Made by a program: the position numbers and the translations under genes. Of a stretch of 64,000 nt of DNA, positions 35,983 through 64,000 are shown in pieces. Location of the stretch: contig CP060227.1 in NCBI GenBank assembly GCA_023898525.1, positions 429,634 through 493,633 on the forward strand, in the 5' to 3' direction. Source of the stretch: Candidatus Nomurabacteria bacterium. Its GTDB lineage: Bacteria; Patescibacteriota; Minisyncoccia; Phycocordibacterales; UBA918. The notes beneath the pieces are model-generated. The model made no database searches. It was given only the letters and a program-made list of their open reading frames with translations, and was not told where the DNA came from. How positions within the stretch are numbered: position 1 is the stretch's first letter; every line of letters starts with the position of its first letter.

Positions 35983-36561
35983 TTAGAGGTGGCTATTCGC
36001 AACTGCGTTGTCTATTAGTTTCTTCATTTTTTCAGCTGACAACTCAGATTCATATTCAGCCAAGGTACTGGCCGGGGCCACCTTGAAGTTTTTGGGAATA
36101 TCTTTTGAATCAACATAGCCAAGCTCGTCCAAAATCCTTAATTGCACCGCCAATTCCAGAAAGCTGCGCTTTTGACACTCACTAATCAAAAGACGCGAGG
36201 CACCAACACAGAAGTCAAAAAGTAAAGAGTGCGCCTCCTCACCATGGACAAACCGCCTTAAGGTCTTCATAAGCATGACCACACTACCACGAGCCTCACG
36301 ACTCTTAGCTGTAGCAAAATAGTTTGGCCCTGGAACAACACTACCGATTCGCCAACCTTGCTTACCTTTCACTAAAGAGACTCTGATTTGAGAAAACTCT
36401 TGCAAGGCCGGCCGCTGCTTCGACCGCTCTTCGCGCACACTACGGGCAGTAGCATAGAGCATGCCTGCCTCACGGGTAAAAAGCACAAATACCTTATCAG
36501 CGGTATTGTGCAAAAAACTACCGCAAACTATCGCCTCTGTGATGTAGGTTTGGTATGACAT
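35983..36561 (-). CDS. recO: DNA repair protein RecO-like
   Basis: N-terminal OB-fold pattern (TEAIVCGSF...VFVLFTREAGMLYATARSVRE), 192 aa; abuts ileS. Confidence 0.5.
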   Translation of the reverse strand: MSYQTYITEAIVCGSFLHNTADKVFVLFTREAGMLYATARSVREERSKQRPALQEFSQIRVSLVKGKQGWRIGSVVPGPNYFATAKSREARGSVVMLMKTLRRFVHGEEAHSLLFDFCVGASRLLISECQKRSFLELAVQLRILDELGYVDSKDIPKNFKVAPASTLAEYESELSAEKMKKLIDNAVANSHL

Positions 36562-39500: not shown

Positions 39501-40226
39501 ACTGGTATCAGTCTTATTACCGTTTTCATCCAGTAGTGGCATTTTGACCGTCACCGCGATATCCTTCACATCCTTATAACCTTGATTCACCTCAAAGTTA
39601 GACAAAGTCGTCCCACAGCGTGGACAAAGATGCATACTCTTAAATCCTTCATACACCAGCCCCTTTTCATGGAGTTGCTTAAATACCCACCACACACTTT
39701 CGGTGTAGTTTGAGTCCATGGTCTTGTAATCATTTTCCATGTCGACAAACCGACCAAGGCGCGGGATAATCTGTCGCCAATCATCCGCATACTCCAAGAC
39801 CGCCTCCCTAGCGGCTTCATTAAAATTCTTGATACCGTAGTCCTCGATATCTTTTTTGTTGGCTAGGCCAAGTTTTTTCTCAATCAAGTTCTCCAGGGGC
39901 AAACCATGACAATCCCAACCCCACTGCCGCCTTACGCGGTAGCCATTCATCGTCCAAAAACGCGGGATTGCATCTTTTATAGTGCCCGGCACTATATGAC
40001 CATAATGTGGCAAGCCAGTTGCAAACGGCGGTCCATCATAAAAAATATAATCTCCTTTAGGACTCTCTCCCGCCGGCTTCTCTACACTTTTATTAAAAAT
40101 ATCATTCTCCTCCCAAAAAGCCTGTACCTCTTCCTCCCGCAAAGCTACCTCAGACTTCTCTACTTCTTTCACCACCTCAACTGAATCGTTCTCACGACCG
40201 TGTACTTTTTTATCTTTCATATTCAA
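36561..40226 (-). CDS. ileS: Isoleucyl-tRNA synthetase with an embedded histidine-phosphatase (PGAM-like) domain (~170 aa insertion at 38037-38555)
   Basis: HYGH (LPHYGHIVPG) and KMSKSLQN class I motifs. Between the PIW block and HRPYIDD lies ITRHAES...SPLQRTKETA...VSHNGTL, matching histidine phosphatase signatures. Confidence 0.85.
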   Translation of the reverse strand: MNMKDKKVHGRENDSVEVVKEVEKSEVALREEEVQAFWEENDIFNKSVEKPAGESPKGDYIFYDGPPFATGLPHYGHIVPGTIKDAIPRFWTMNGYRVRRQWGWDCHGLPLENLIEKKLGLANKKDIEDYGIKNFNEAAREAVLEYADDWRQIIPRLGRFVDMENDYKTMDSNYTESVWWVFKQLHEKGLVYEGFKSMHLCPRCGTTLSNFEVNQGYKDVKDIAVTVKMPLLDENGNKTDTSILIWTTTPWTLPGNMAIAVNQELDYVKVSVLNSTIPDRVGADGEIKKEIKYENVILAKGRLAQLGDLPYEVVEEMKGSDLLDLSYEPPFNYFENLWATPRGPKRIDDFNEEKEKEKKAWKIYHADFVEIGEEGTGVVHLAPAYGEDDMNVAKENNIPIAHHVDYGGRFMDFVTDFAGQLVKPKDDDEARVSHLDADIEVLRHLQTAGKIFKKENITHSYPHCWRDSTPLLNYATTSWFVKVTDMRDELVAANNKVKWVPDYVGQNRFGKWLEGARDWAVSRQRYWGAPLPIWKNEKTGEYKVFGSMAEMQEFVPKSGNKYFITRHAESALNTKETLNVDVAVENGITDKGKEQVSELVEKLKAEKIDLIYYSPLQRTKETAEKVAEGLGLSKEVLVADERLLEVRFGEFDGKTVSEYHAFFTTGTDRLTKTPEGGENWTDVKRRAGELLNEIETKHKDKNVLFVSHNGTLQMLQAVAKGDDFETLGKIIEENTYDLNNAELRALPFVPFPHNDSYELDYHRPYIDDIKLYEDGEELKRVPDVFDCWFESGSVPYGQLHYPFENKEKFEAERFPAQFIAEGLDQTRGWFYSMLVLGVALFGKSPYENVIVNGLVLAEDGKKMSKSLQNYPDPMELVGRLGADSMRYYLLSSPVVHSEDLSFAEKDVLEIQRKNIGRLHNVLAMYEMFADGGEEARGASEPRHDSNNVLDRWIVARLNQLIAESTAGYKAYELDKAVRPITDFIDDLSVWYLRRSRDRLKGEDVEDKKLALGTLRYVLRELAKVMAPAMPFYAEYLYRAVRDESEAESVHLAKWPETGSVNEVLLDCMRTTRELVTLALEQRTRSGIKVRQPLSSLSVSKPVDSELLSVIADEVNVKTVTVNETQSEVVVLDTNITTELKQEGEARELIRVIQDMRKESGLKPQDVITLTIATSPAGEEMVKAQLDIIKKVVGAKEITFTTTKGKEIQIGDNSYLISIVKV

Positions 40227-44773: not shown

Positions 44774-46042
44774 CTAAACAAACCGCTCTGGCACCGGAAA
44801 GGCTTCACATATTTCTTCCACCTCTTGCCTGAATTCAACCTTTTTCTTCTTATCATCTTTAGCATGCAAAACTTCAACCATTATCTCAGCCAGTCTAGTC
44901 GCTTCCCTTTCTTTCATAAGACGCGTGGTCATAGCCGGTGTACCAAAGCGAATACCAGACGGATCAAGAGCGGTACGGGACTCATCTGCAATCATATTTT
45001 TATTTAAAGTGATACCCACTTCATCAAGAGCTGTCTCCGCTTCTTGTCCGGTCACTCCAAGGGAGTCGTAAACATCAGCCAGAAGCAAGTGGTTGTCTGT
45101 ACCACCACCCAAAAGCCTAATACCAGCCGACTTAAACACCAACTCCATCGCCTTGGCATTTTTTAAGATCTGCTTACTGTATTCTTGAAACGCGGGAGTG
45201 AGAGCTTCACCAAAAGCCACCGCCTTGGCTGCTATGATGTGCATATGTGGCCCACCTTGCATCCCTGGAAAGACTGACCGGTTGATCTTCTTGGCAATTT
45301 CTTCATCTTCCCTCACCAATATCATTCCGCCTCGTGGCCCGCGCAGCGTCTTGTGCGTAGTAGTGGTAATAACATCAAAGCCGACATCAAACGGATTTTT
45401 AGCTACCCCACCAGCGATTAGTCCCGCAATGTGCGCCATGTCAGCCACCGTATAAGCACCCACTTCTTTAGCAATATCTACAAACTTAGCGTAGTCAAGC
45501 TCACGACTATAAGCGGAAAAACCGGCCAAAATAATCTTCGGTTTTTCTCTAAGCGCCACTTCACGAAGCTCGTCATAATCAATCTCGCCGGTATCGACAT
45601 TTTTCATCTTGTAGCGTACGAAGTTGAAGACTTTATTAATGGTAGTAGTTGGATGACCGTGGGTAAGATGTCCGCCGTGACCCAGATCCATACCCAAAAC
45701 CGTATCCCCCGGCTCCATTAGAGCAAAGTACATCGCTACGTTAGCATTAGCTCCGCCCAAAGGTTGTACGTTGGCAAACTTGGCGTTAAATAATTTTTTA
45801 GCTCGCTCAATGGCAATCGTCTCGACGATGTCAGTAAATTCCTGACCGCCGTAGTAACGACGTCCCGGGTACCCTTCTGAGTATTTGTTGGTAAAAATAG
45901 AACCAGCCGCTTCGCGCACAGCTCGTGAAGCATAATTTTCGCTTGGGATCATTTCTACCCCCTTACGTTCTCGCTCCTCCTCACCCTCTAGCGCACGATA
46001 GACTTCTTCGTCTTGGTCTTTGATAAATTTGTATTCGTTCAT
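44774..46042 (-). CDS. glyA: Serine hydroxymethyltransferase (start at MNEYKF; upstream in-frame TTG is less likely)
   Basis: PLP-lysine region (TTTTHKTLRGPRGG) and overall SHMT pattern. Confidence 0.9.
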   Translation of the reverse strand: MNEYKFIKDQDEEVYRALEGEEERERKGVEMIPSENYASRAVREAAGSIFTNKYSEGYPGRRYYGGQEFTDIVETIAIERAKKLFNAKFANVQPLGGANANVAMYFALMEPGDTVLGMDLGHGGHLTHGHPTTTINKVFNFVRYKMKNVDTGEIDYDELREVALREKPKIILAGFSAYSRELDYAKFVDIAKEVGAYTVADMAHIAGLIAGGVAKNPFDVGFDVITTTTHKTLRGPRGGMILVREDEEIAKKINRSVFPGMQGGPHMHIIAAKAVAFGEALTPAFQEYSKQILKNAKAMELVFKSAGIRLLGGGTDNHLLLADVYDSLGVTGQEAETALDEVGITLNKNMIADESRTALDPSGIRFGTPAMTTRLMKEREATRLAEIMVEVLHAKDDKKKKVEFRQEVEEICEAFPVPERFV

Positions 46043-46145
46043 GATAAATAGCTTAAAAGTAATAATCTGCCTCAACTGAATTTTTTGAACGAGTTAATTT
46101 AGATCATGGTAATTTAGCTTATTGGTAAAAATTATAGCATAGAGA

Positions 46146-46199
46146 GAGGTAAAAGGTCGCCCAGCCCTCGCAAGCGAGGGCTGGGCGACCTTTTACCTC
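46146..46199. terminator. 26-bp perfect GC-rich hairpin (gaggtaaaaggtcgcccagccctcgc aa gcgagggctgggcgaccttttacctc)
   Basis: Perfect inverted repeat in the glyA upstream region; candidate bidirectional terminator or REP. Confidence 0.5.
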
Positions 46200-46262
46200 T
46201 ATACAAGATCCCTTTTTCATACTATAATAAACACTTTCTAAATACGTTCTTTGAGGAGAAAT

Positions 46263-46421
46263 ATGAAAACAATCGTCGCCGCACTAAGCGCAATAGTCAT
46301 GGTAGTGACAGTAGCATTTTTAGCTGGCACTCCCGAACCGGTAAATTTGTTGGCTGTAATAGCTGCTGTAAGTTCATTTTTTATTGGTTTAGCAGCTCTA
46401 TCGCGGTCATTACCTGGATAA
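46263..46421 (+). CDS. Small membrane protein (52 aa)
   Basis: MKTIVAALSAIVMVVTVAFLAG... with SD gaggagaaatATG; not in the ORF track (<60 aa). Confidence 0.4.
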   Translation: MKTIVAALSAIVMVVTVAFLAGTPEPVNLLAVIAAVSSFFIGLAALSRSLPG

Positions 46422-46457
46422 GTAATTTGTTTTTTAAATCTTTAGGGGAGAATTGCA

Positions 46458-46784
46458 ATGAAAATAGACGATATCATTGTTGATAATATACTTAACAACA
46501 ACAACTGCTTATCATTGTTACTATTTTCAATCTTTTTTGTGGGAGTAAGTATGCTTATTTGGCTACTTGCCCACAAAAAAGAAAGTTCTACTATGTTGGA
46601 TTTTTCTTGGTTCTTTCTGCTATTATCGGTAATGTCCCTTGTGGTCTTACTTACAGAAATTGGACTAAATCCAGTTTCTTTGGCTCTTATTTTGTTTGCG
46701 ATCTTAGGCGGTACAACAATTTATCTAGCACATTTAGAATACCCAGACCCGGTTCGGCACGAAGAAGAAACCGTGGAAATCTAA
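46458..46784 (+). CDS. Small membrane protein (108 aa)
   Basis: Three predicted TM segments; SD aggggagaattgcaATG. Confidence 0.5.
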   Translation: MKIDDIIVDNILNNNNCLSLLLFSIFFVGVSMLIWLLAHKKESSTMLDFSWFFLLLSVMSLVVLLTEIGLNPVSLALILFAILGGTTIYLAHLEYPDPVRHEEETVEI

Positions 46785-46800
46785 CATTAACTAATAGTGT

Positions 46801-46843
46801 AACAACCTCGCTGGTATTAATACCTACGAGGTTGTGTTTTTAT
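46801..46843 (+). terminator. Hairpin terminator (aacctcgctggtattaatacctacgaggtt + T-run)
   Basis: Stem-loop followed by tgtgtttttat after the stop at 46784. Confidence 0.65.
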
Positions 46844-46862
46844 AAATTTTATAGCTTCAATT

Positions 46863-47828
46863 TTAATCCCCCTCAATCTTATGATCTACTCCCCCTACCA
46901 CTGCCATTTGAGCTTTTATCGGAGGATGTGACTCATAATTATTTAGTGTCACATGTTCTGGTCTGAAATCATCTAAAGAAGTCATCTCATCACTAAGGAT
47001 AACAGTTGGGAATTTCATCGGCTCACGAGACATTTGTTCTTTAGCCTGTTCTTTGTGATTTTCATAAATGTGCACATCACCAAAAGTATGAATAAACTCC
47101 CCTGGTTCATAACCAGTAATCTTCGCTAAAAGCATAGTCAAAAGTGAGTAACTAGCGATATTAAAAGGCACTCCAAGGAAGATGTCGGCTGAACGCTGGT
47201 AAAGCTGCAGACAAAGTCGACCGTTTTTTATATTCACCTGATACATATTGTGACAAATCGGAAACTGACTAGCCTCGCTTGGCTTAGCCATGCTATACAA
47301 ATATTCAGGATTCCAACTATTTACCAAGGTATTGTGAGCATGTGGATCTTTCTTGATTTCGTCTACCACCCACTGCAATTGATCAATTCCTCGACCGTCT
47401 TTGGTTGGCCATTTGCGCCACATTTCACCGTATATGCGCGGTAGCTCCCCATGCTTGGTCGCATACTCATCATCAGTCGCAATCTTTTCAATAAATTCTT
47501 CTTTAGTCATTTCCGGCCAACCTTCTTTTTCACGCTTGTTGTTGTAGATACGGAAAGGATAATCGTCCCAAATATGCACGTTATTATCTACCAAATACTT
47601 TATATTGGTCTGCCCAGACATAAACCAATACAGTTCATGCAACACTCCTTTCCAGTAAACTTTCTTAGTGGTCAAAAGTGGTAAACCTTCGCTGAGGTCG
47701 AAGCGCAGCTGCCGACCAAACAAACTATGAGTTACATCTCCTGTCATTAAATCTTCTTGCCGATCACCTTTTTCTAAAAGCTCCTGCATTAAATCTAAGT
47801 ATTGGTATTCTGGATGTTTGTTTGACAT
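46863..47828 (-). CDS. thyA: Thymidylate synthase (ThyA, long form with insertion)
   Basis: PICHNMYQVNIKNGRLCLQLYQRSADIFLGVPFNIASYSLL matches the ThyA active-site region. Confidence 0.9.
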   Translation of the reverse strand: MSNKHPEYQYLDLMQELLEKGDRQEDLMTGDVTHSLFGRQLRFDLSEGLPLLTTKKVYWKGVLHELYWFMSGQTNIKYLVDNNVHIWDDYPFRIYNNKREKEGWPEMTKEEFIEKIATDDEYATKHGELPRIYGEMWRKWPTKDGRGIDQLQWVVDEIKKDPHAHNTLVNSWNPEYLYSMAKPSEASQFPICHNMYQVNIKNGRLCLQLYQRSADIFLGVPFNIASYSLLTMLLAKITGYEPGEFIHTFGDVHIYENHKEQAKEQMSREPMKFPTVILSDEMTSLDDFRPEHVTLNNYESHPPIKAQMAVVGGVDHKIEGD

Positions 47829-47834
47829 GATTTT

Positions 47835-48308
47835 TTAATTATTATTGTTAAAGTAATCCTTCAATTTAGTAGCGAACTCTGCTCTAGAAACTGGGTCTGA
47901 CGAAAAGCTTTGTTTATGTAGTGAATACAAATCATCTCCTTCATATCTTGGAAAGACATGTAGATGATAGTGCCACACCTCTTGGTTTCCAGCTGGTTCG
48001 TTATGCTGCCGAATACTAACACCGTCACATTTATAAAGTTCCTTCATAGCAATAGCTACCTTTTTGGAAAAAATATGAATTTTAGCTAATAGATTATCTG
48101 GTATATCGTAAATATTCTCATAATCTGTGTTTGGAATAATAATTACATTACCAGGATTGTTTGGCCATTGCTTAGAAGAAATAAAAGCTGAAATATCGTT
48201 ATCTTGATAAAAAATGTCCTCCTTATTGGTATGGATGCTATCAAAATTTCCGTTATCTATAATAGCTTGAAAAGGATTTTTGTATTCTGCGGATTTATGG
48301 CTGTACAT
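47835..48308 (-). CDS. HIT-family nucleotide hydrolase (start at MYSHKS)
   Basis: Histidine triad HYHLHVFPR. The longer ORF upstream of MYSHKS lacks homology and would overlap dcd. Confidence 0.75.
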   Translation of the reverse strand: MYSHKSAEYKNPFQAIIDNGNFDSIHTNKEDIFYQDNDISAFISSKQWPNNPGNVIIIPNTDYENIYDIPDNLLAKIHIFSKKVAIAMKELYKCDGVSIRQHNEPAGNQEVWHYHLHVFPRYEGDDLYSLHKQSFSSDPVSRAEFATKLKDYFNNNN

Positions 48309-48318
48309 TTTTTTATAA

Positions 48319-48864
48319 TTACTTCTTCGGCTCTGCGAAGTGGTTTGAATTCTCGCTGTCATAGCGCCCAACATCTTCGTAAGACTTGCTAGTTGGAGAG
48401 GAAAGCTTGGCAAACAATAACTGCGCGATCTGCATCCCCGGACGAAGAATGATCGGAATATTGCTGGCATTCACGAGCTCAAAGGTCGGGTAGAATTTGT
48501 GTCCCGGATTAAAAAGCATAGCGGTGTTGTGCACCACCAGCCCAATCCGTGCCAAGCTACTTTTACCGGAAAGCAAGATCAAGTGCTCATTGTCGACCCC
48601 AATAAACTCCCGTTGCTTCCCTAGCACATTCTCTCCCGGATGAAGTACAAACTCATCATCATCCTCGATACGAAACTTACGGGTAGAAGGATAAACCTTC
48701 CTGGCCGGATCAGACGCTTGTACCAAATGTCTATCGACTACTTCAAACTCATTACCTAAAGTCACATCGTAGCTAGCGAGCTGCAACTGTTCTTCACGAA
48801 AAGGCTCGATAATAAGCGCCCCCCTTTTTACCCCATTCATGATGTCGACGTCAGACAAAAACAT
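48319..48864 (-). CDS. dcd: dCTP deaminase
   Basis: 181 aa, dUTPase-fold Dcd pattern (MFLSDVDIMNGVKRGALIIEPF..., LSGKSSLARIGL). Confidence 0.85.
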   Translation of the reverse strand: MFLSDVDIMNGVKRGALIIEPFREEQLQLASYDVTLGNEFEVVDRHLVQASDPARKVYPSTRKFRIEDDDEFVLHPGENVLGKQREFIGVDNEHLILLSGKSSLARIGLVVHNTAMLFNPGHKFYPTFELVNASNIPIILRPGMQIAQLLFAKLSSPTSKSYEDVGRYDSENSNHFAEPKK

Positions 48865-48867
48865 ATT

Positions 48868-49542
48868 TTATTTAACAACAAAAGTCTTATCGGTGCCGTA
48901 ATAATCCGTCCAGTTTTCATTATAAAAAGCAAACATACGCGCCAGACGATCCTGCGATAATTCTTCTACTTCTAATTCGGCCATCAATTTCTCCAGATTA
49001 GCTCGTACCTGATCAAGACCAGACTCATCGTCGGTGACCGTTTCAAATTCAGCCAAGTAACCATAACCAGCGTTTTTATCTAAACAAACATTGATATCTT
49101 TATAAGCATACTCTACCCGCTCCCTAGACCACTTGGCCTCATATTCATAGCCAACCGAAAGAATCAGAGCATCGAGTTCAAGTAGCGACAAAGCCACCGT
49201 TTCTTCAAATTCCAACCTGGAGACAGTGTTGCTACTACTACCACCGTCAACAGCAGCCTTCACAACCAAAAGTACCTGATCATCTTTTTGTCTAGTACGA
49301 ACCGAAAAGTCAGTACCCCGCTCGGCAATCATTTTGAACTTATCGTGTTGATCATCAATAAAAAGATGCTCTACTTTGTCATAGAGGTCATGAATGTCCC
49401 CGCCGATAAAATAATGATTGAGCTGTTTATTTTCGCCAATTACCTTCAAATCCGGATCTAGCTTTCGCATTTTTTCGACTAAATTATCAGCTTGCTCTTT
49501 TTCTCCCAAGAGACTTTTAATTTCAATTTCAAAGTTGGCCAT
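48868..49542 (-). CDS. CYTH-domain protein (triphosphate tunnel metalloenzyme)
   Basis: N-terminal EIEIK motif and alternating acidic beta-strand pattern typical of CYTH. Confidence 0.65.
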   Translation of the reverse strand: MANFEIEIKSLLGEKEQADNLVEKMRKLDPDLKVIGENKQLNHYFIGGDIHDLYDKVEHLFIDDQHDKFKMIAERGTDFSVRTRQKDDQVLLVVKAAVDGGSSSNTVSRLEFEETVALSLLELDALILSVGYEYEAKWSRERVEYAYKDINVCLDKNAGYGYLAEFETVTDDESGLDQVRANLEKLMAELEVEELSQDRLARMFAFYNENWTDYYGTDKTFVVK

Positions 49543-49619
49543 AGTCTAAGCATTATAGCAGACTGATTTTGCTAAAAAATCACGACAGTATTTGAAATCT
49601 ATGCCATAATCAGTGCACT

Positions 49620-50135
49620 ATGAAAAAACCAAACGTACCGGTAGTAATAGTAGCCGCCATGAGCCGAAAAAACCGAGTGGTTGGTAAGGAAAATAAGCTA
49701 CTTTGGCACGTACCGGAAGATCTAAAACACTTTAAATCCCTTACCCTTGGTCACCCCGTTATTATGGGTCGCAAGACCTTTGAATCGATTGTTCAGATAC
49801 TTGGTAAGCCTCTACCCGGTCGCACCAACATAATAGTCACCAGAAATTCTGACTATCAGCATGAAGGTGTAAAAACTGCGACATCTTTAGAAAAAGCTTT
49901 TACCATTGCCCAAGAAGAAAACCCGACCGAAATCCACATCGGTGGCGGTGAAGAAATTTGGCGACTATCTTTTCCTTACGTAGACCGACTTCACTTAACT
50001 TTTTTTGATGATGAACCGGAAGGCGACGCCTACTTCCCCGACTTTACCCAAGATTTTGTTGAAATAAAGAAACACCCTCCGCAAGAATACGGAGAGCTTA
50101 GATACCAGTGGGTAGATTTTAAGAGAAAACCTTAA
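49620..50135 (+). CDS. folA: Dihydrofolate reductase
   Basis: VVIVAAMSRKNRVVGKENKLLWHVPEDLKHFKSLTLGHPVIMGRKTFESI is the canonical DHFR N-terminal region. Confidence 0.9.
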   Translation: MKKPNVPVVIVAAMSRKNRVVGKENKLLWHVPEDLKHFKSLTLGHPVIMGRKTFESIVQILGKPLPGRTNIIVTRNSDYQHEGVKTATSLEKAFTIAQEENPTEIHIGGGEEIWRLSFPYVDRLHLTFFDDEPEGDAYFPDFTQDFVEIKKHPPQEYGELRYQWVDFKRKP

Positions 50136-50248: not shown

Positions 50249-51294
50249 CCCTATCTTGAATCACCACCCTAATTGCACAGACCATCACTTCCAAAATATC
50301 TGATGTGGAGACTTGAAATTATGTCTCTTTCTAGGACGATGATTTATACGACGAACCGCTTCAGAAAGTTCTTGTGGAGTAATGGTGTTGAAATCCAAGT
50401 CTTTCGGAAAATATTGTCGAAGTAGCCCGTTAGTATTTTCATTGGTACCACGCTCCCAAGAGTGGTATGGATAAGCAAAGTACACAGTCATACTCGTTTG
50501 TTTCTCAAACCGTTCCCAGTCACTGAACTCGGTACCGTTATCAAAGGTAGCGGTCTTTCGTTTGTTTTTGGGTATACGCCTGAATTTTTCCACCGCCAGT
50601 TTAGTGAGTAAAGTAGCATTTAATTTTGGCAGAAGATACGCAATTAGATACCCGCTTCTGCGATCAACGAAGGTGACAATACGTACTCGTTTGTCTCTTC
50701 CCAGCATAGTATCTCCCTCCCAATCTCCCAAACGGGAGCGACGTTCAATAATGGGCGGTCGTTCATCAATACGACGTTTCTTGGCTCTTTCACGAACTTT
50801 TTCACGTATTTTGGTGCCTCGTTTGCGCCGATACTTGCCTTTCTGAGAACGAAGAAATTGTTTAAGGTGTGGAGCTCGTTCGTTAATGTATCGGTAGATA
50901 GTGCTCGCAGAGATGTCATCACGTACTCCGACTATCTGTTCCGGTGAGTAGTGTTGTTTTAATAATCGTTTCACTTCTCGTAATAATACTCCTTTGAGTA
51001 TTCTAGTACCTTCCATAGCAATGATACGTGCCTGTTTTTTCTTTCTGCGAACCTCGCGAGCATCGTATCTATCCCGACCACCATACGCTTTAATATGTCT
51101 ATTAACCGCACTTGGATCTTTGTTGATAATGTGCGCAATCTCCACTCCTGAGTATCCCGCTTTGAGCATACGTGAAATAACCGGCCAGTCTTCCGGTCCT
51201 ATTTGTTTGTGTGACATACAAAAGCAGTATGTATGTCATCTTGACCTGTGCAATTAGGGTGCAAAGGATTGTGCAATTAGGGTGAGAATTCAGG
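50249..51294 (-). mobile_element. IS30-family insertion sequence (~1.05 kb)
   Basis: Terminal inverted repeats are cctatcttgaatcaccaccctaattgcacagacc (left) and the revcomp of ggattgtgcaattagggtgagaattcagg (right). The right end has an extra tandem copy of tgtgcaattagggtg. Confidence 0.7.
50285..51217 (-). CDS. IS30-family DDE transposase
   Basis: RSRLGDWEGDTMLG, NGTEF and ENTNGLLRQYFPK signature blocks, plus an N-terminal HTH. Confidence 0.85.
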   Translation of the reverse strand: MSHKQIGPEDWPVISRMLKAGYSGVEIAHIINKDPSAVNRHIKAYGGRDRYDAREVRRKKKQARIIAMEGTRILKGVLLREVKRLLKQHYSPEQIVGVRDDISASTIYRYINERAPHLKQFLRSQKGKYRRKRGTKIREKVRERAKKRRIDERPPIIERRSRLGDWEGDTMLGRDKRVRIVTFVDRRSGYLIAYLLPKLNATLLTKLAVEKFRRIPKNKRKTATFDNGTEFSDWERFEKQTSMTVYFAYPYHSWERGTNENTNGLLRQYFPKDLDFNTITPQELSEAVRRINHRPRKRHNFKSPHQIFWK

Positions 51295-51317: not shown

Positions 51318-51362
51318 AATATGTTATAAACATTCATTCAAATTAATTAAATATTAATTTGA
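51318..51362. promoter_or_regulatory. 45-bp perfect palindrome (aaacattcattcaaattaat taaat attaatttgaatgaatgttt) between IS30 and the lipoprotein gene
   Basis: 20-bp perfect arms; AT-rich; 45 bp upstream of the lipoprotein RBS. Confidence 0.4.
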
Positions 51363-51406
51363 ATGAATGTTTGTTTGTCATTTCTACTTTACAAAAGGAG
51401 AAGAAA

Positions 51407-51832
51407 GTGAGAAGTTTTTTGATCTTCATCTTGATACTTACAATTTTGTTTACCGCTTCATGCGCCTCTGTATCTGACAGAAAAAATGCGCTGGTAGAAC
51501 CCTTTAAGTCCGAAAGAGCTCTAGCTGTTTTGGGTACAGAAAACTTACGGGAAATAGGACTGAAAAAGGACGACGGTATCGCCCTTGAAACTTTTATCCA
51601 AAACCATCTATCTATAGGTGAACAAGGTGGATTTGTAACAAAGAGTTTTAATGTAAGCAACAACAAAGATCCGTTAACCTTGTTCTTACTTACAAAGAGA
51701 ATGGATCGAGAGACAAGCTGCATACCATTAGTACTGGGAATAAACTTAGGTAACGGAGACTCTTTCCAAGGGGAAGGTACGGTATGCCCTAAACTCACCA
51801 AACAAGGTGTGATCTGGAAAAGATCGGTGTAA
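51407..51832 (+). CDS. Putative lipoprotein (GTG start; lipobox FTASC)
   Basis: SD aaaaggagaagaaaGTG; signal peptide VRSFLIFILILTILFTASC. Confidence 0.55.
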   Translation: MRSFLIFILILTILFTASCASVSDRKNALVEPFKSERALAVLGTENLREIGLKKDDGIALETFIQNHLSIGEQGGFVTKSFNVSNNKDPLTLFLLTKRMDRETSCIPLVLGINLGNGDSFQGEGTVCPKLTKQGVIWKRSV

Positions 51833-54698: not shown

Positions 54699-55499
54699 CT
54701 ACCGTACTTGGTAAGTAATAGTCACGCGACTGGAAATGGTATTTTCTCCGGTTGGTAACTCTGGTGCCTCAAAAGACTTAGCGGCCGATTCTATAGCCAT
54801 ATCACCACCGATTCCATAGTACGGCCGTGGACCACTTTCGTCTTCATAGTAACCAACCATCTTAACTACTCTAACTCCGAGTTCGTTAGCCAAAACTCTA
54901 GCCTTAGCCTTAGCATCAGCAATTGCTTGAGCTCTGGCTTCTATCTTTAAGTTATCAGTGTCATCAATCTTAAACTGAAGTCCACTTATATTGGTTGCCC
55001 CTAGGTCACCCACCCCAGCTATCAGACTGCCCGCCGTATCAATATCCCGCACCTTTACTGTAATCATCTGACTAACTTCGTAACCATCAGGTACCCGCTT
55101 CTGTGGACAAAGACTTCCTTCCGGACACACTTCTGCTTCATAGCGGTATTTTTGATACAGGTTGTAATTTTCGGTTTTGATGTCTTTTTCCTCTACCCCA
55201 CTATCTTTCAAATAAGCTATGATACTGTTTATCTTAGAACCAGACGCTTCTTGAGCCGCCGCCGCATCATCTCCTTTAGCGGTTACAGAAAAATTAAACC
55301 AACCCAGATCCGGCACCGCTGCTACCTCACCTACTCCAGAGACTGAAATTGTGACCGGACCGGTATAAAGATATTTAGATTGTTTCAGAGTGTAGGTAGC
55401 GTAAGAAGCTAAAGCAATGACCAAAGCAACCAAAGCAACCGTACCCAAAAAACGATTACCTTTTGAACTAAAAAATGAATTATTTATATTGTTCTCCAT
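54699..55499 (-). CDS. SIMPL-domain (DUF541/YggE-like) periplasmic protein
   Basis: N-terminal TM plus SIMPL-family pattern (AAVPDLGWFNFSV...). Confidence 0.7.
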   Translation of the reverse strand: MENNINNSFFSSKGNRFLGTVALVALVIALASYATYTLKQSKYLYTGPVTISVSGVGEVAAVPDLGWFNFSVTAKGDDAAAAQEASGSKINSIIAYLKDSGVEEKDIKTENYNLYQKYRYEAEVCPEGSLCPQKRVPDGYEVSQMITVKVRDIDTAGSLIAGVGDLGATNISGLQFKIDDTDNLKIEARAQAIADAKAKARVLANELGVRVVKMVGYYEDESGPRPYYGIGGDMAIESAAKSFEAPELPTGENTISSRVTITYQVR

Positions 55500-55511: not shown

Positions 55512-56456
55512 TTAAAAGTAAGCTAATAAACCACGAATCATTTGTCTTGTTCTTTGAGAGACCTCCGTCCCTTCCCCACAAGTTTCCACCAAAGCTTCTT
55601 TATCTTCATCCGTTAAAACAACCAAACCAGACTGTTCTTTAGTTAAATAATACATTACTGAAGTTTCACCTTCAACATGATTAATACCAAGAGCGTGGCC
55701 AAACTCGTGCGCTAATACTTTTTTTAATTCTTCATTATTCGAGAATTTGTATATATTTATGCGTTCACGCTTAAAATCACCCTGCGTGAAAGTATCTGAT
55801 CGGCCAAAGATTTCATTATAACGAAGTACATTAGCATTGTACCGCTCAATTATCTCACTACTTTCTTCTCCCAAAGCGTTTATTCTGTTGGCCGTATCAT
55901 TTAAATCTTTTTCGGCCTCAAGTAATTTCTTTAATAATCCAGACAAGTACTCTTGTTCTTTTTTTAACTCGGTAAAGATTTCGCTCGGCGCCCCTCCTTC
56001 AGCGTTATATCTTTCAACTTGTTGGTTGTACTTATTAAGACGATCCTCATAAGTATCACGTTGTTTTAAGTAATCTGCCTCTAGGTTCTTGTATTCACTC
56101 CTTAATTGATCAACCCGGTCTGACACTTCTTGACTCTCTCTTTCCTGCTGATCTAAATCTTGACGCCATTCTTCCTCTGTTCGAGCCAACTGTTGTCGCT
56201 CATCATAAATAAAATTAACCGTAAAAGTCGTATCTTCATCATAGACAAATAGCTCGCGCTCTCCAGCCGCTTCCCACACATCTTCCGCTTCTAGAAGGAC
56301 GGCTTTTGCTTGTTCCGCCGAAAAATTAAATCGTGGGTCTATGTCCCCCAACTTATACTTGATCGGTACGGGGCAGATATGAGCGGAGCTGGTGTACCAA
56401 TAGCTGCCGCCAAATACAAGCACAAACAACAAACTGATAATAAGAAAAAAGCGCAT
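55512..56456 (-). CDS. Secreted metzincin-type zinc metalloprotease with coiled-coil insertion
   Basis: HEFGHALGINH extended zinc-binding motif; signal/TM at the N-terminus. Confidence 0.75.
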   Translation of the reverse strand: MRFFLIISLLFVLVFGGSYWYTSSAHICPVPIKYKLGDIDPRFNFSAEQAKAVLLEAEDVWEAAGERELFVYDEDTTFTVNFIYDERQQLARTEEEWRQDLDQQERESQEVSDRVDQLRSEYKNLEADYLKQRDTYEDRLNKYNQQVERYNAEGGAPSEIFTELKKEQEYLSGLLKKLLEAEKDLNDTANRINALGEESSEIIERYNANVLRYNEIFGRSDTFTQGDFKRERINIYKFSNNEELKKVLAHEFGHALGINHVEGETSVMYYLTKEQSGLVVLTDEDKEALVETCGEGTEVSQRTRQMIRGLLAYF

Positions 56457-57484: not shown

Positions 57485-59452
57485 TTAAACGTTTTCTGAA
57501 AACAGGTCAATATCTTTTGCTAATTCATCTATTTCACCAGTTCCTATGCCTTCAGTTATTTTTCTGGTGCTTCTATCGATATTAAGCGATATTAGACCAC
57601 TCCGCTCAAGGCGTTTAACTAGTTCAGTTATTTGTGTAGAAAAAACAACTGAACAACCGCTGTCGGCGAGTGTTTTTAGTACTTTGTCGGAAAGCTCTAT
57701 TCCTTGTGCTTCTTGAGTACCACCCCCCAACTCGTCAATGATGGTTATACATTGTGAAGGCTTACTCTCTTTTGCTTTATCGAGTAATGCCTTAAGCTTT
57801 CTGAGCAGTAACTCAGCAGTTGAGCCAGATCCTCGTTCAATGAATACTAGCCCCATGGCTTGTTTGGCGTTGAATTTTACATTTGTTCCAAATACAGGTA
57901 GTCCGCATTGAGCCAAATATAAGGAAGTTGCTATTGTCTCCAAAACCACAGTTTTACCGCCAGCATTGTGTCCTGTTATACTGATTATGTTATCAGCAAT
58001 ATCAGGTAATTTTCCAACAGGAATAATATTTGACGGATCGACGTCTACAGCTAAGTGAAAAGGAAAAAGATTGTCCGAAGAAAATACGTGATTATTGTCA
58101 TCAAGTATCTCTGGAAAAGACAGTGTAGTCTTCCAGTCCTTTGACTTGATATCAAGTGACCGGATTATCTTTGTCATATCAATCAACTGGTTAAACAAGC
58201 CGCTGATGTACTGACGACAGGCATTGGCTTCATTAAACATATCGCCTACACCTTTTTCAACTTGACCTGAGCATAATGCAGTAATTGAGTTGTAAGCGAA
58301 TCGGCTAGAAAGATCATCTGAAGAAACTTCAACCCCGCTCTTTGAGAAAAAGTGTTTAGTTTTTTCATCAGAAAACAGATTTGCCAATAACTTAGCTTTT
58401 TTTACGTTTGCCAGGTGATCCCTTGTAGAGGCTTCTTTTAGTGCTTCAACTTCTCTCAAAAAACGTTGTGTGTTTTTTTGAGAATAACCAGGAAAGTCTC
58501 TATCACATTTGATCTGTAGTGATTGACTTTCATATTCGTCTTTCTGGTCTTTGTGTTTAATACCACTCAGTTGAAGTTGTATGTCTACAATCTTAACAAA
58601 AAGCCTTCCATACTCATATGTTAAACCTAGTTTTACATCCCAGGTGTGATTTGATTCATTGCGTACGTTTTTAAATAGCTCACCTACCACATCAGCCACA
58701 ATTTTTTTAAGAGACTCTGGAGTCTCGTCAATGACTTGTGGTCCGTATGCACTCTGATCATTGCTTTTGTTTAATCGTTCAACTACCCACTGCTTCCATT
58801 TGCGAGGGAGTGGAATTTTTGGAAAAAAACCACTGTCAATTGTCCATGGTTTGTAATCCAGGGGAGCGTATCCATATAGATGATACCCAAGAGTGTTATC
58901 TTCAAGTAACTTTACATCCCTTTTGTCTACAGTCAAAGATATAATGCTATTAAAGGAGACGGTAGTCCTTGATAGGTCAACCACCTGCTTTGAGAAGTTT
59001 TTCTCTAGCTCACTTATAGTTCCAAAATTTTCATTCAGAAATTTTATAAGTTTTTTAACTTCAGGTGGTACGTCTCCTTCTGCGGTACGCTGCAATGCAG
59101 TGTGGTACTCATGCAAGATTTCCAAGAATAAGGACGGCTGTTCTCTATCTGGATGAAAATCGTGCAAAAAAAGCTTGTCCTTAGTAGGTATGTCTGAAGG
59201 TAGGTTGAGTTCCAGTAATTTGTCCATAAAATCTGGATTTTGTTGTAACCATCTGAATATAGACTGCCTTGATAAAATTTCATTGCGATCACTGGTTGCA
59301 ATGAGGTCTACCAACCCAGTCTTCTCAATACCCAAAATTTTCAGTACAGGTTTAAGTCGAAGGTCACCTTCGTTGATAACTTCTAATGGAGGCACTTCTT
59401 TATTCCAGAAGGTTATTACAGGATAATTATTTGTTGTACATGCATCGGTCAT
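57485..59452 (-). CDS. MutS-family ATPase-domain (domain V) protein with large unrelated N-terminal region; lacks mismatch-binding and Smr domains
   Basis: ITGHNAGGKTVVLETIATSLYLAQCG parallels the MutS motif [26 protein letters not shown]. Walker B IIDELGGGT parallels MutS DEIGRGT. Confidence 0.7.
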   Translation of the reverse strand: MTDACTTNNYPVITFWNKEVPPLEVINEGDLRLKPVLKILGIEKTGLVDLIATSDRNEILSRQSIFRWLQQNPDFMDKLLELNLPSDIPTKDKLFLHDFHPDREQPSLFLEILHEYHTALQRTAEGDVPPEVKKLIKFLNENFGTISELEKNFSKQVVDLSRTTVSFNSIISLTVDKRDVKLLEDNTLGYHLYGYAPLDYKPWTIDSGFFPKIPLPRKWKQWVVERLNKSNDQSAYGPQVIDETPESLKKIVADVVGELFKNVRNESNHTWDVKLGLTYEYGRLFVKIVDIQLQLSGIKHKDQKDEYESQSLQIKCDRDFPGYSQKNTQRFLREVEALKEASTRDHLANVKKAKLLANLFSDEKTKHFFSKSGVEVSSDDLSSRFAYNSITALCSGQVEKGVGDMFNEANACRQYISGLFNQLIDMTKIIRSLDIKSKDWKTTLSFPEILDDNNHVFSSDNLFPFHLAVDVDPSNIIPVGKLPDIADNIISITGHNAGGKTVVLETIATSLYLAQCGLPVFGTNVKFNAKQAMGLVFIERGSGSTAELLLRKLKALLDKAKESKPSQCITIIDELGGGTQEAQGIELSDKVLKTLADSGCSVVFSTQITELVKRLERSGLISLNIDRSTRKITEGIGTGEIDELAKDIDLFSENV

Positions 59453-59601: not shown

Positions 59602-61278
59602 CTACTTCTTCTCCGTCAACTTCTTCCTTACCATCTGCTGCGCGGCGTTCATACTATGCTGGTAATAGAGAGATTTAATTCCCTGCTTCCAAGCTTGGAT
59701 GTAAAGCTGGTTGATATCTTTGACGGGTGTGTCCGGCGCCACCATTACATTAAGTGACTGTCCTTGGTCGATGTGTTTTTGTCGATCAGCCGCTTGCTTA
59801 ATAATGGCAGATTGATCAATCTCGGCGAAAGTACGGTAAACTTCTTTTTCTTCGGCTGTTAAGAAGTCCAAGTGCTGTACCGAACCATCGTGATCACGGA
59901 TACTGTCCCAAGTCTCTTTACTATCCTTACCCTTCTCTTCCAACAAGGTCTTTAGGTTGGGGTTTTTAATCGTAACTTTCATTTTGGCTACATCCTTGAT
60001 GTAGCAATTAGACCAAATTGGCTCAATACCCTGTGATACTTGACCAAGAATAAAGGCTGAAGAAGTATTAGGGGCAATCGCTAAAAGAGTGGTGTTGCGA
60101 CGTCCGTAACCCTTCAATATTTCTGGCTCACCTAATTCTTTAGCTAATTCTTTAGTTGCCACGACAGCTCGTTCATTTATGTGTTTAAAAACTTCAACAT
60201 TAATCTTTTGTGCTTCTTCACTTTCAAAAGAAAGTTTTTTGGCTTGCAAAAGCGAGTGCCAACCTAAAGCTCCAAGACCCAGCGCTCGGTTGGCTTTAGC
60301 AAAGTTATAAGCTCGTTCCATAAAAGTAAACGCTAGACGTTTTTCTTTTTCTTTGCTATCTCGCATCTCCTCCAACTTTTGAATAAAATCTTCCATTACG
60401 GCGTCTAAAAAGGCAACCATTACCTCAACCAAATCTGTATCTTTCCAGTCGTCATAATGCCTAAGATTAATTGAAGAAAGACAACATACAAACGACCAAT
60501 CGTCGTGTGACGGTAGCATAATCTCACTACACATATTACTAGCGTAAATCCTTAGTTTTTTATCTTTGTAGACATCGACCGTGTTGTTGTTGGCGGCATC
60601 CTGAAACATGATGTACGGATATCCCATCTCCCCCCGACGCTGAATCACTCTGGCCCAAATGGCTCGTTTCTCTTCGTCCCCTTCAATCATTGATTCCATC
60701 CACTTGTCTGTCACGGTTACACCGTGAGTTAGTTTTTGGATTGGATTGCCCTCGGTTCCAATATCGAGAAACTCTAGAATATCAGGGTGTTCAATTGGTA
60801 AATATGGAGACAGGTGCCCGCGACGAACCGAACCCTGGCTCACCACATCAACCAAAGTTTCAAACAGCTGCATAAAATGAACCGCTCCTGATGAATGTCC
60901 ATTGTCACCAGAAATACGAGCTCCTCGTTCTCGCAAATCTCCAAAATATCCAGAGCATCCTCCACCAAACTTACTCATCATTCCCACTTCAGCATTAGTG
61001 TAAAGAATACTACCCATATTGTCGGCCACATAAGAACCAAAACAGCTGATTGGCAATCCTTTATCAATCCCAAAGTTAGACCAAACCGGCGAAGCTAGAG
61101 AAATCCACCCCTTACTCATGTAATCTACGAATTTATCAGCAAAACCAGGACGCTTCAAAAATTTCTCAGCTGCTTTAGCTATAACTTCTATTCTCTCTTC
61201 CGCTGTCTGTCCTTCTGCCAAATAACCTCTGGCCAAAAAACCGCGACTGTTTTCGTTCAACCAATACCATGACTCCAT
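59602..61278 (-). CDS. nrdA: Class I ribonucleotide reductase alpha subunit, short form without ATP-cone
   Basis: SNMCSEI thiyl-radical motif; C-terminal SLYY. At 558 aa it starts directly with the catalytic barrel. Confidence 0.85.
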   Translation of the reverse strand: MESWYWLNENSRGFLARGYLAEGQTAEERIEVIAKAAEKFLKRPGFADKFVDYMSKGWISLASPVWSNFGIDKGLPISCFGSYVADNMGSILYTNAEVGMMSKFGGGCSGYFGDLRERGARISGDNGHSSGAVHFMQLFETLVDVVSQGSVRRGHLSPYLPIEHPDILEFLDIGTEGNPIQKLTHGVTVTDKWMESMIEGDEEKRAIWARVIQRRGEMGYPYIMFQDAANNNTVDVYKDKKLRIYASNMCSEIMLPSHDDWSFVCCLSSINLRHYDDWKDTDLVEVMVAFLDAVMEDFIQKLEEMRDSKEKEKRLAFTFMERAYNFAKANRALGLGALGWHSLLQAKKLSFESEEAQKINVEVFKHINERAVVATKELAKELGEPEILKGYGRRNTTLLAIAPNTSSAFILGQVSQGIEPIWSNCYIKDVAKMKVTIKNPNLKTLLEEKGKDSKETWDSIRDHDGSVQHLDFLTAEEKEVYRTFAEIDQSAIIKQAADRQKHIDQGQSLNVMVAPDTPVKDINQLYIQAWKQGIKSLYYQHSMNAAQQMVRKKLTEKK

Positions 61279-61307
61279 ATGCGTTGTATCTTTAATTAGT
61301 ATATTAA

Positions 61308-62621
61308 TCAGAATAAATCATCACTAGTCACACTAGCACTGCGCTTATTATAGTTGATAGAGCGCTTATTGAAAAAGTCCACATGCTTAGTCGCAATCAC
61401 CTCGTTGTCAAACCAGTCAGTTTCTTCAAGCAAGGCTTCGCTCACTTCAAAGATGCGTGGTAGACCAATCGAAGCCAAAGAATTATTAAGACGATTTTTA
61501 ACAAACTCTTTCACGTTTGCTGCTGGTAAAAAGTCCAACTCACCCGCTTCATAGATCCAGTCAATTATTTCACTCTCAGCCTCGTAGGCTTCTTCGCAAG
61601 CCCTAATAATCATTGCCTTGCAGTCTTCATCAAACCATTCTGGGTGTTCTTTTTTTATGGTATTAATCACATCAATACCAAACATACCGTGAATCTGCTC
61701 CTCTTTTGAGGTGGCTTCTACGGCGTTACTGATTCCTTTCAACAAATTTCTATGTTTATTGAAAGACATGATAATTAGAAATTGTGAGAACAGTGACACG
61801 TGCTCAATAAACAAAGAAAATAGCAAAACAGAATGCATGTACTGACGATTTTCGTCTGTCTTTGACAGGGTGATTGTTTTTTCCAAATAAGCAATTCTTT
61901 TTTTGATAACCGGTACACTGGTGATTTTTTCAAACTCAGCATTTAGTCCCAAAATTTCCAACAAGTGAGAGTAGGCGTCCATGTGCCTCGCTTCACTCTC
62001 GGCAAAAGTCACACCAACCGCACTGATTTCTGGTTTTGGCATTTTTTTGTAAATATCTCCCCAGAAGGTTTTTACCGCCACCTCTATTTGAGCAATTGCC
62101 AACATAGCATTTTTAATTGCATTTCGTTCTGACGGGGTAACGTTAACGTGGAAATCGTTGATATCACTGGTGTAATTGAACTCGGTGTGAATCCAGTATG
62201 AGTGACGAATAGAATTAACGTATTCATACAACTCTGGATATTCGTAAGGTTTTAGGTTGGTACGCTTTTGGAATATGTCACGCTCACGGAGTTTTTTGCG
62301 GGCATTACGGTAGATAATGTAGGCTTTGGCTGTATCGAAATAATCAAGCTCCATCAGAGATTGCTCCACCAGGTCTTGAATCTCCTCTACCGCCGGGTAA
62401 CCATCAATACACTTCTTGGATTTGCTGCTCTCAGGGTCAGCGGTAGCCGCCTGGACACACATATCGATAGTTTTTTTATGAACCAACTCGGCTACTTTTT
62501 TGGCATCTACCACTTCTCCCTCTTCAGTCTCAAAAAGTGCTTTTAAGATAGCGCTTTCAACCTTAGCAATATCAAAAGACTGTACTGAACCGTCTCTTTT
62601 ACGAATCTGCTTAATCTCCAT
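61308..62621 (-). CDS. nrdB: Ribonucleotide reductase beta (R2) subunit with N-terminal ATP-cone fusion
   Basis: N-terminal ~100 aa are an ATP-cone (IKQIRKRDGSVQSFDIAKVESAILKA...). The rest is a ferritin-like R2 with the di-iron/tyrosyl signatures ExxHxxxY (EARHMDAY) and EEQIH. Confidence 0.8.
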   Translation of the reverse strand: MEIKQIRKRDGSVQSFDIAKVESAILKALFETEEGEVVDAKKVAELVHKKTIDMCVQAATADPESSKSKKCIDGYPAVEEIQDLVEQSLMELDYFDTAKAYIIYRNARKKLRERDIFQKRTNLKPYEYPELYEYVNSIRHSYWIHTEFNYTSDINDFHVNVTPSERNAIKNAMLAIAQIEVAVKTFWGDIYKKMPKPEISAVGVTFAESEARHMDAYSHLLEILGLNAEFEKITSVPVIKKRIAYLEKTITLSKTDENRQYMHSVLLFSLFIEHVSLFSQFLIIMSFNKHRNLLKGISNAVEATSKEEQIHGMFGIDVINTIKKEHPEWFDEDCKAMIIRACEEAYEAESEIIDWIYEAGELDFLPAANVKEFVKNRLNNSLASIGLPRIFEVSEALLEETDWFDNEVIATKHVDFFNKRSINYNKRSASVTSDDLF

Positions 62622-62979
62622 AAAATTATCTGAAATAAATAATACTTAATAAACCTAAATATCTCTCACAAACTTAATTGCTGGTGTTGTATACAATTAA
62701 GTCTAAGAAAGATCGTCGCTACAAACCGCGTGTGTTATAAGCCTTGGATGTCAAAACACACGGTGGAGAATTCGTGCGTACCCACATGATACCATTTTTT
62801 GAAAACGCCCATTTTTCGTACTAATGGCTAAAATAAAGGCTATTAATAAGCAAAAAAATCAAAAGTGTTTATAAAAATGTGGATAACTTAAGACCCTTAG
62901 ACAGTTATGATAAGGAATTCTTGTTTTGTGTAGTTTGCAAAGTGCGAAAATGTTCTGTGGTTGGAGAGGGTGAAAAATT

Positions 62980-63462: not shown

Positions 63463-64000
63463 TTAATGTGAATGTTGGTGGTGATCAGCGCAAGTGTGTA
63501 AACCATCTTCATCAATACATTTATCTTTAAAATACCAAGCCGCTAAAGTAGTGGTCAACGGTACAGCTAGTACCAGGCCAATACTACCAACCACGATGCG
63601 TAATATTTCAGCTGCTATCACTTCTTGATTAAGAGTAATGAGAATTGATGATTCGGACAGTGAGTAAAGCAGTATGAGAGGCAGTGCCGCTCCCACATAG
63701 GCAAAAGCCAATGTATTAACAAGTGAACCAACATGATCTCGACCGACCTTTATCGCACTTGAATACAACTCCTTAAATCCAAGATTGTGATTGGCACCCT
63801 TTAATTGTTGCACCACAGAAGCTTGGGTAATAGAAACGTCATCCAGTACACCGAGTAGTCCAATAATAATACTACCGAGTAAAAGTCCAGTTAGATCCAG
63901 CGTACCATCGGTGGCAAAATTCAAATACACCGCCGCGTCATCACTAAAGCCGGTAAAACGCATCCACTCCACCCAAATCCACGCCATCAAACAAGTCACC
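63463..64000 (-). CDS. YibE/F-like membrane protein, C-terminal part (N-terminus beyond window end); His-rich tail
   Basis: Polytopic membrane ORF open at the window edge; ends HHQHSH. Confidence 0.45.
   Translation of the reverse strand, partial: VTCLMAWIWVEWMRFTGFSDDAAVYLNFATDGTLDLTGLLLGSIIIGLLGVLDDVSITQASVVQQLKGANHNLGFKELYSSAIKVGRDHVGSLVNTLAFAYVGAALPLILLYSLSESSILITLNQEVIAAEILRIVVGSIGLVLAVPLTTTLAAWYFKDKCIDEDGLHTCADHHQHSH

Follow-up and report, generated by a model that had tools for sequence, protein, structure and literature searches.

A predicted class Id ribonucleotide reductase operon from Candidatus Nomurabacteria with an ATP-cone on NrdB, a cysteine-less NrdA tail and a candidate leader RNA

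In a stretch of 64,000 nucleotides of a Candidatus Nomurabacteria genome (GenBank assembly GCA_023898525.1, contig CP060227.1, positions 429,634 to 493,633; hereafter the window), two adjacent genes on the minus strand, nrdB and nrdA, encode the radical-generating and the catalytic subunit of a ribonucleotide reductase (RNR). We consider it highly probable that they form a bicistronic operon for an aerobic class Id (NrdAi/NrdBi) RNR of this Parcubacteria/Nomurabacteria member of the candidate phyla radiation (CPR). The nrdB gene (62621..61308, minus) is an open reading frame (ORF) of 437 aa of the NrdBi subclass (class Id), with an ATP-cone and an R2 core, and is followed after a spacer of 29 nt (61279..61307, minus, from the sequence) by nrdA (61278..59602, minus), an ORF of 558 aa of the NrdAi subclass and without an ATP-cone. 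Terminator-like hairpins lie on both sides of the unit, one after mscL (63020-62978, minus) and one after nrdA (59585-59567, minus). A cysteine-less alpha tail, a cysteine-bracketed insertion in the cone and a leader RNA are specific to the clade to which this operon belongs and are apparently unreported, as no report of any of them was found in the literature searched. A wider reading is put forward tentatively and as an unlikely one, namely that in this CPR clade the alpha redox shuttle was lost repeatedly and only after the cone had gained a cysteine pair, with the allosteric domain perhaps doubling as, or gating, a reductant relay, and with the clade's own control exerted through a leader RNA and a DnaA box.

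The R2 ferritin-like core of NrdB (residues 120-393; 61443..62264, minus) was recognised as Ribonuc_red_sm (PF00268, E 2.3e-61), and the R2 motifs named in a first-pass annotation of the window were all found, namely E210-A-R-H213-M-D-A-Y217, E308-Q-I-H311 and the alpha-binding C-terminal DDLF. The best match to NrdB was 5OLK, the NrdB of Leeuwenhoekiella blandensis (full length, E 3.4e-168), followed by other class Id betas (6SF4, 1.3e-152; 8DQ3, 2.7e-114; 6CWO, 1.4e-100); beyond the characterised class Id set the best match was the Francisella hispaniensis beta 9DWS (1.6e-23), and the class Ic structure 2ANI was matched at 1e-15. An AlphaFold 2 (AF2) model of NrdB, with a predicted local distance difference test (pLDDT) score of 88, returned 5OLK as its top Foldseek match, and the modelled core could be superimposed on 6SF5, the Mn form, with a template modelling (TM) score of 0.99 and a root-mean-square deviation of 0.8 A, the core identity to the L. 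blandensis protein being 68%.

It was previously shown that the metal site of NrdBi has a lysine (Lys174) on a distorted first helix, a subclass-invariant tryptophan (Trp177) and a non-radical tyrosine (Tyr207) (PMC5794259). In the window protein E180, K184, W187, Y217 and E273 are the equivalents of L. blandensis Glu170, Lys174, Trp177, Tyr207 and Glu263, and the six metal ligands E180, E210, H213, E273, E308 and H311 together with K184 and W187 make up the full class Id metal-site set. These eight residues, Y217 and the C-terminal Y424, a tyrosine of the pathway for proton-coupled electron transfer (PCET), were invariant across 50 diverse NrdBi. By homology to L. blandensis, this NrdB should use a dimanganese Mn(III)/Mn(IV) oxidant and no tyrosyl radical. 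Many of the NrdBi cluster representatives P0122-P0221 were 550-1300 aa long, and the match to the query was broken into two or three segments, which suggests intein insertions in their R2 core.

The ATP-cone occupies residues 5-110 of NrdB (62292..62609, minus). The first-pass annotation had read the 437-aa product as an N-terminal ATP-cone fused to R2 and had named a PF03477 profile search of the N-terminus as one check; the profile gave a match of 67.8 bits against a Pfam cut-off of 25.8 (E 1.2e-18, profile positions 2-88 of 88), within one uninterrupted ORF. A frameshift or a split gene behind the cone-R2 fusion was rejected, as there is a single ORF and almost every one of the 120 homologues closest to it is likewise 437 aa long. 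In the AF2 model the cone consists of strands 5-7 and 13-15 and of helices 18-32, 37-60, 78-91 and 95-112, and thus has the form of a four-helix bundle with an N-terminal beta-hairpin cap. Asp73, Met80, Lys89, Ile92, Ile93 and Arg95 of L. blandensis, which were assigned to the dATP-induced tetramer interface and an internal salt bridge (PMC5794259), are matched in the window by D83, M90, K99, I102, I103 and R105. In 121 clade sequences K8, R9, K20, E79, Q82, D83, E86, K99, Y104, R105 and R108 are invariant and Y101 is kept in 118, and by our count 19 of the 23 cone positions that are identical between the two-dATP cones of L. blandensis and Pseudomonas aeruginosa are retained in the window protein. 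Going by such residue conservation, the cone would bind ATP and dATP, and may hold two nucleotides at a time.

That overall activity can be controlled by a cone on beta in a few NrdB subclasses, as stated in the first-pass annotation, is borne out by the NrdBi of L. blandensis (PMC5794259), for which a model has been published (PMC5794259, PMC8350387, PMC6754362). This is also the most likely mechanism for the window operon; on it, the cone of NrdB would be the overall activity switch, and NrdA, having no cone, would contribute the catalytic and the specificity sites. Binding of ATP to the cone would leave beta dimeric and give an active alpha2beta2 enzyme; binding of dATP, two molecules per cone, would pair the cones through their helices 3 and 4 into beta4 tetramers, and these would lock alpha into alpha2beta4 and alpha4beta4 complexes without activity. 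By analogy, the clade enzymes would resemble that of L. blandensis in the metal they carry, in binding nucleotides and in forming tetramers.

Several points weigh against so direct a transfer. Over aligned columns the window cone shares only 41% identity with its characterised L. blandensis counterpart, it has an insertion of 18 residues, and at positions shared by two-dATP cones it has the non-conservative substitutions I7R, P15S and T22E, together with I21V. Furthermore, the alpha tail is devoid of cysteines, so that the published catalytic cycle is not transferable unchanged, and class Id activation requires oxygen or superoxide chemistry. The four cone substitutions, of which three are non-conservative, and the insertion could also be taken as signs that the cone is a degenerate, non-regulatory remnant, like some inner cones of multi-cone NrdAs. 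We regard this as improbable, since the Pfam score is far above its cut-off and since the nucleotide-motif and interface residues are invariant in the 121 clade sequences (79-100% overall identity) while neighbouring positions vary.

The catalytic subunit was matched by the NCBIfam model TIGR02510 'NrdE-prime' with 760 bits against a cut-off of 602 (residues 2-553, model positions 13-552 of 560), and its structure matches were 6DQX (E 4.5e-208) and 6DQW (E 1.4e-184). Pfam placed on it the RNR barrel and a weak match to the all-alpha N-domain at residues 7-73, with no match to the ATP-cone PF03477. Both motifs that had been pointed out in NrdA are present, SNMCSEI at 247-253, which contains the N-x-C-x-E finger loop, and YY at 538-539. 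The description of NrdA as truncated was not upheld; it is a full-length NrdAi, covered end to end by TIGR02510, with 558 aa where the median for NrdAi is 564 aa (PMC9669993), and a cone is absent from every NrdAi (PMC5794259). Across 72 of 72 loci C79, C250 and C265 are invariant, and by motif they would correspond to E. coli C225, C439 and C462.

The order of a beta gene followed by an alpha gene was likewise read correctly in the first-pass annotation, and nrdB precedes nrdA in all 81 related genome loci. Cones on beta are found almost exclusively where alpha lies downstream of beta, and 70 of 104 NrdAi operons have the beta-alpha order (Burnim et al., PMC9669993). A cone-bearing NrdB beside a cone-less NrdA had been called notable, which in itself it is not, as this is the characterised architecture of L. 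blandensis (5OLK) and the gene order is documented as well (PMC9669993). Cone-on-beta has been known since 2018, and in this respect the window adds a CPR example only. The domain architecture, the subclass, the gene order and the conserved metal-site, interface and PCET residues are direct observations in the window and its relatives.

What sets NrdA of the window apart is its C-terminal tail, YYQHSMNAAQQMVRKKLTEKK (59605..59667, minus), which has a normal length and no cysteine after YY. Class I alphas "almost exclusively" have a C-terminal CxxC double-cysteine motif that serves active-site re-reduction (PMC6187632, PMC9669993); our statements on the alpha tail rest on these two papers and on the locus survey of the present analysis. 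In that survey a C-terminal cysteine-pair motif was found in every Flavobacteriaceae locus and in every more distant CPR locus, for instance ...KQKKDCVSCEA. Tail-less members, as we call those whose alpha tail has no cysteine, have 17-25 residues after YY and short-tailed CxxC members have 21-23; since tail length was kept, the tail cysteines were substituted and not deleted. Because NrdA has no C-terminal CxxC, the route of the reductant in the window lineage must differ from the usual relay through the alpha tail.

A number of simple explanations for the missing cysteines were tried. Sequencing error was rejected, as 31 independent loci agree. C266 of NrdA was rejected as a clade-specific substitute for the tail, for tail-bearing CPR neighbours have C266 too, and C108 was rejected as an explanation of tail loss, being found in part of the clade only. 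A tail-encoding mini-gene 3' of nrdA was also rejected in the window, where the 149 nt before the next gene hold a terminator only. It could further be supposed that a gene for such a tail-less NrdA is decaying or merely accessory, its work being done by another RNR, and as of 2018 all species known to have a cone on NrdB did encode another RNR too (PMC5794259). Nevertheless NrdA is intact, its catalytic cysteines, N-x-C-x-E and YY are invariant, its tail length is preserved, and protein identity across more than 30 independent tail-less loci is 70-92%, so that decay or an accessory role is very improbable.

The second feature of the clade lies in the cone, where residues 55-72 (62406..62459, minus) form a clade-specific insertion bracketed by C55 and C71 (M-C-V-Q-x..x-K-C-[IV]-[DEN]-G). 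Both cysteines were present in all 121 close homologues, and the insertion was absent in L. blandensis and in all other cone-bearing NrdBi representatives compared. It was modelled by AF2 as ordered, with an extended helix 37-60, a helix 67-70 and then a strand, and the block had a pLDDT of 84-90. The two features go together to a large extent. Among loci with the cone cysteine loop and a complete nrdA, 31 of 32 were tail-less, and the 57 loci without the loop all keep a tail with a cysteine pair (CxxC or CxxxC), these counts being pooled over genome and metagenome loci. Locus L016 has both the cone cysteine loop and the alpha tail, and L031 has a tail along with a shorter homologous loop, C-x10-C. 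As both features occur together in L016 and L031, the comparison suggests that the cone cysteines are older than the loss of the tail, which they may have permitted.

The history of tail loss was examined on trees made from the NrdA and NrdB cores only. Tail-less taxa were monophyletic in none of 200 bootstraps, and of two sub-clades, supported at 98% and 96%, the latter mixes tail-less and tailed members. With loss taken as irreversible, every bootstrap tree required at least three losses (mode 5), all of them inside the cone-cysteine clade. With about 32% of the total tree length lying in this clade, the probability that all losses fall inside it by chance is roughly 0.03 or lower. The trees are simple neighbour-joining trees whose taxa are metagenome-assembled genomes (MAGs), and exchange of nrdA 3' ends by recombination could look like repeated loss or inflate the loss count.

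It may be proposed that C55 and C71 take over the role of the alpha CxxC or make it dispensable, with reducing equivalents being delivered or relayed from the N-terminal appendage of beta. The near-exclusive pairing of loop and tail-less state, the confinement of all losses to the cone-cysteine clade and the precedence of the cone cysteines in L016 and L031 speak for such a relocation of the shuttle, and a precedent exists in Facklamia ignava, in which a glutaredoxin (Grx)-cone-NrdB fusion reduces the enzyme (PMC6187632). We nonetheless consider it doubtful. The cysteines stand at the base of an ordered insertion and not on a flexible tail, so that access to the buried active site would seem sterically hard; C-x15-C is no known redox motif; and the reservations about the trees given above apply here too.

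The more conservative reading, to which we give a little less than an even chance, is that reduction of the active site comes straight from a small-molecule thiol or from a dedicated redoxin whose gene lies elsewhere in the genome, that the cone cysteines form a structural disulfide, bind a metal or sense redox state, with no part in turnover, and that their correlation with tail loss comes from shared lineage physiology. Small-molecule reductants have been proposed by Burnim et al. for RNRs without C-terminal cysteines, in the case of class II tails (bioRxiv 10.1101/2022.04.23.489257). The predicted order of the insertion is in keeping with direct reduction, as is the fact that four CPR loci (L016, L023, L031 and L048) combine cone-loop cysteines with a retained tail. 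On the other hand, no redoxin gene turned up in Pfam scans of 44 larger ORFs of the window, nor did any clade locus have one within 4 kb of its operon, and direct reduction leaves unexplained why all losses fall in the cone-cysteine lineage.

Compared with characterised systems, the window operon is closest to NrdAi/NrdBi of L. blandensis (5OLK, 6SF4/6SF5), with which it shares the N-terminal cone on NrdB and an NrdA (about 560-600 aa) that has none. The metal ligands, the lysine and tryptophan on the distorted helix, the tyrosine that is not the radical site, the residues of the cone interface and the C-terminal DDLF agree as well. It differs in its host, a CPR bacterium rather than a flavobacterium, in the 18-residue ordered insertion with two invariant cysteines, in the absence of the 39-residue disordered N-terminal extension of LbNrdA, and, unlike Flavobacteriaceae homologues, in the absence of the C-terminal CxxC from NrdA. 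Like the window operon, the Grx-ATP-cone-NrdB fusion of F. ignava (PMC6187632) is an NrdBi with the cone on beta, nrdA immediately downstream and a cysteine module on the N-terminal appendage of beta, which in F. ignava is redox-active; there, however, the module is a complete glutaredoxin with CPWC and the C-terminal cysteines of NrdA are kept, whereas here it is a Cys-x15-Cys loop within the cone and the tail cysteines are gone. The class Id enzymes of Flavobacterium johnsoniae, Actinobacillus ureae and Aggregatibacter (6CWO, 6DQW, 6DQX, 8DQ3) belong to the same alpha and beta core subclass, but their betas lack an ATP-cone and hence overall activity regulation.

An identical NrdB is recorded in NCBI as RNR beta subunit of Candidatus Nomurabacteria bacterium, more than 100 cluster representatives at 79-91% identity have both the cone and the R2 domain, and a scan of species-representative genomes gave at least 591 relatives, of which the best 80 comprised Patescibacteria (65-86% identity) and then Flavobacteriaceae (60-64%), all with nrdB before nrdA. 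No paper was found in the literature on RNR in Patescibacteria or Parcubacteria. CPR-like cone-bearing NrdBi were also seen in four MAGs labelled Woesearchaeota archaeon, Gammaproteobacteria, Erysipelothrix and Flavobacteriales (L003, L030, L057 and L078, with L003, the Flavobacteriales one, at 80% identity), which points to horizontal transfer or mis-binning.

The region upstream of nrdB, 409 nt in length, contains signals that may link the operon to replication and to an RNA-based control. Upstream of the promoter region of nrdB lies a DnaA-box consensus, TTATCCACA (62878..62886, minus), and the 64 kb contain no other perfect box. Of 33 clade loci, 26 have TTATCC[AC]CA in the 450 nt upstream of nrdB, as compared to 1 of 11 non-clade loci. 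Control of nrdAB by DnaA has been established in E. coli (PMC8203912), and the window resembles E. coli nrdAB in having a consensus DnaA box upstream of an RNR promoter region, but differs in that only one predicted box was identified here and in that the box is combined with a long structured leader RNA, which is missing from E. coli nrdAB. A putative extended -10 element, TGGTATCAT (62786..62794, minus), corresponds in the alignment to TGnTAnnAT, a block conserved at the leader's 5' edge, although it was not called by a consensus promoter scan of the window.

Downstream of the extended -10-like block, the leader of the clade is about 190 nt long and has four CACAC/GUGUG segments able to pair alternatively, a GGAGGUAA loop, two variable hairpins and a 3' domain of two helices; canonical copies are those at L005:3782-3964, L006:3775-3968 and L012:2156-2331. 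A covariance model of this leader matched about 30 loci, always directly upstream of nrdB and only in the cysteine-insertion clade, whereas searches of Flavobacteriaceae loci and of other CPR loci gave no match. Across 29 sequences, pairing was seen in 90.6% of the alignment cells, versus 27-49% with partners slid, and 23 pairs change on both sides (14 of 18 in the 3' helix); the alignment behind these figures was fitted to the model, which biases them towards the structure.

The leader copy of the window is degenerate, and only its 3' domain is recognised by the model. This domain, two stacked helices at 62661..62713 (minus), was matched by the covariance model R1 with 21.1 bits (E 0.042, model positions 112-181). 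The 164-nt leader of the window has a minimum free energy (MFE) of -39.4 kcal/mol (z -3.15, with 0 of 200 shuffles folding as well) and folds into two domains, the second of which spans exactly the R1 match, 62661-62713. In the 5' domain (62715..62781, minus) an inner hairpin, CCGUGUGU..ACACACGG, at 62729-62762 is a divergent version of the clade hairpin GUGUGUC-GGAGGUAA-GACACAC. Neither the window leader nor 15 related loci had a gathering-score match in Rfam 15, where only hairpin noise appeared at E up to 10. The leader is put forward as a candidate riboswitch or attenuator of the RNR operon; transcription would probably be coupled to replication by way of the conserved DnaA box and modulated by the structured 5' leader.

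The genes around the operon were also surveyed. With an ATP-cone hidden Markov model and NrdA/NrdB phmmer searches of all stop-to-stop ORFs of at least 50 aa, no second ATP-cone or RNR paralogue was found in the 64 kb. No NrdR was found by Pfam among 44 larger window ORFs, the unscanned ORFs of at least 150 aa being 50285-51217, 51359-51832, 54699-55499, 55512-56456 and 63463-63999. About 10 kb from the RNR operon lies a deoxynucleotide (dNTP)/thymidylate cluster (44774-50135) with serine hydroxymethyltransferase (SHMT), ThyA, a HIT-domain protein, dCTP deaminase and a CYTH protein, in which a dihydrofolate reductase (DHFR) gene is placed divergently. A second CPR locus, L001, compared by way of the relative P0002 (91% identity to the window NrdB), is syntenic for this cluster and has the same neighbourhood as the window, mscL lying upstream and the genes for DHFR, dCTP deaminase, ThyA and SHMT close by. 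Directly downstream of nrdA a gene for a 655-aa protein (57485-59452, minus) was noted whose sole recognised module is a C-terminal MutS domain V/KamC-like ATPase and which is not at the corresponding position of L001.

Elsewhere in the window a 23S rRNA fragment (1-2760, minus) covers model positions 1-2075 in 2760 nt, some 685 nt above the bacterial model, with no ORF longer than 108 aa inside; the excess length fits the rRNA insertions that are common in CPR bacteria. A 1221-aa isoleucyl-type class I tRNA synthetase (36561-40226, minus) has a histidine-phosphatase domain (PF00300, E 1.3e-32, residues 563-731) inside its catalytic domain. Two IS200-like Y1 transposase ORFs (6470-6931 and 10383-11135, minus) were found around the L10-L7/L12 ribosomal protein genes and a tRNA-Pro, as were genes for a 399-aa MATCAP-like protein (PF08014; 5061-6260, minus) and for a 1041-aa protein with RTX calcium-binding repeats (24080-27205, plus).

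As the alpha C-terminal cysteine pair is regarded as near-universal among class I RNRs, a conserved and repeatedly evolved tail-less enzyme raises the question of how its active site is re-reduced, and the clade offers a natural test system in this regard. Taken together, the cone cysteine pair and the loss of the tail suggest a link between redox supply and activity control; were the relay indeed relocated to the cone, this would be the first class I RNR to turn over without alpha-tail cysteines. For organisms whose regulatory repertoires are minimal, the leader RNA would be a new candidate for the control of deoxynucleotide synthesis in cis. As in a genome of about 1 Mb this RNR may be the only one, these features may be essential rather than accessory.

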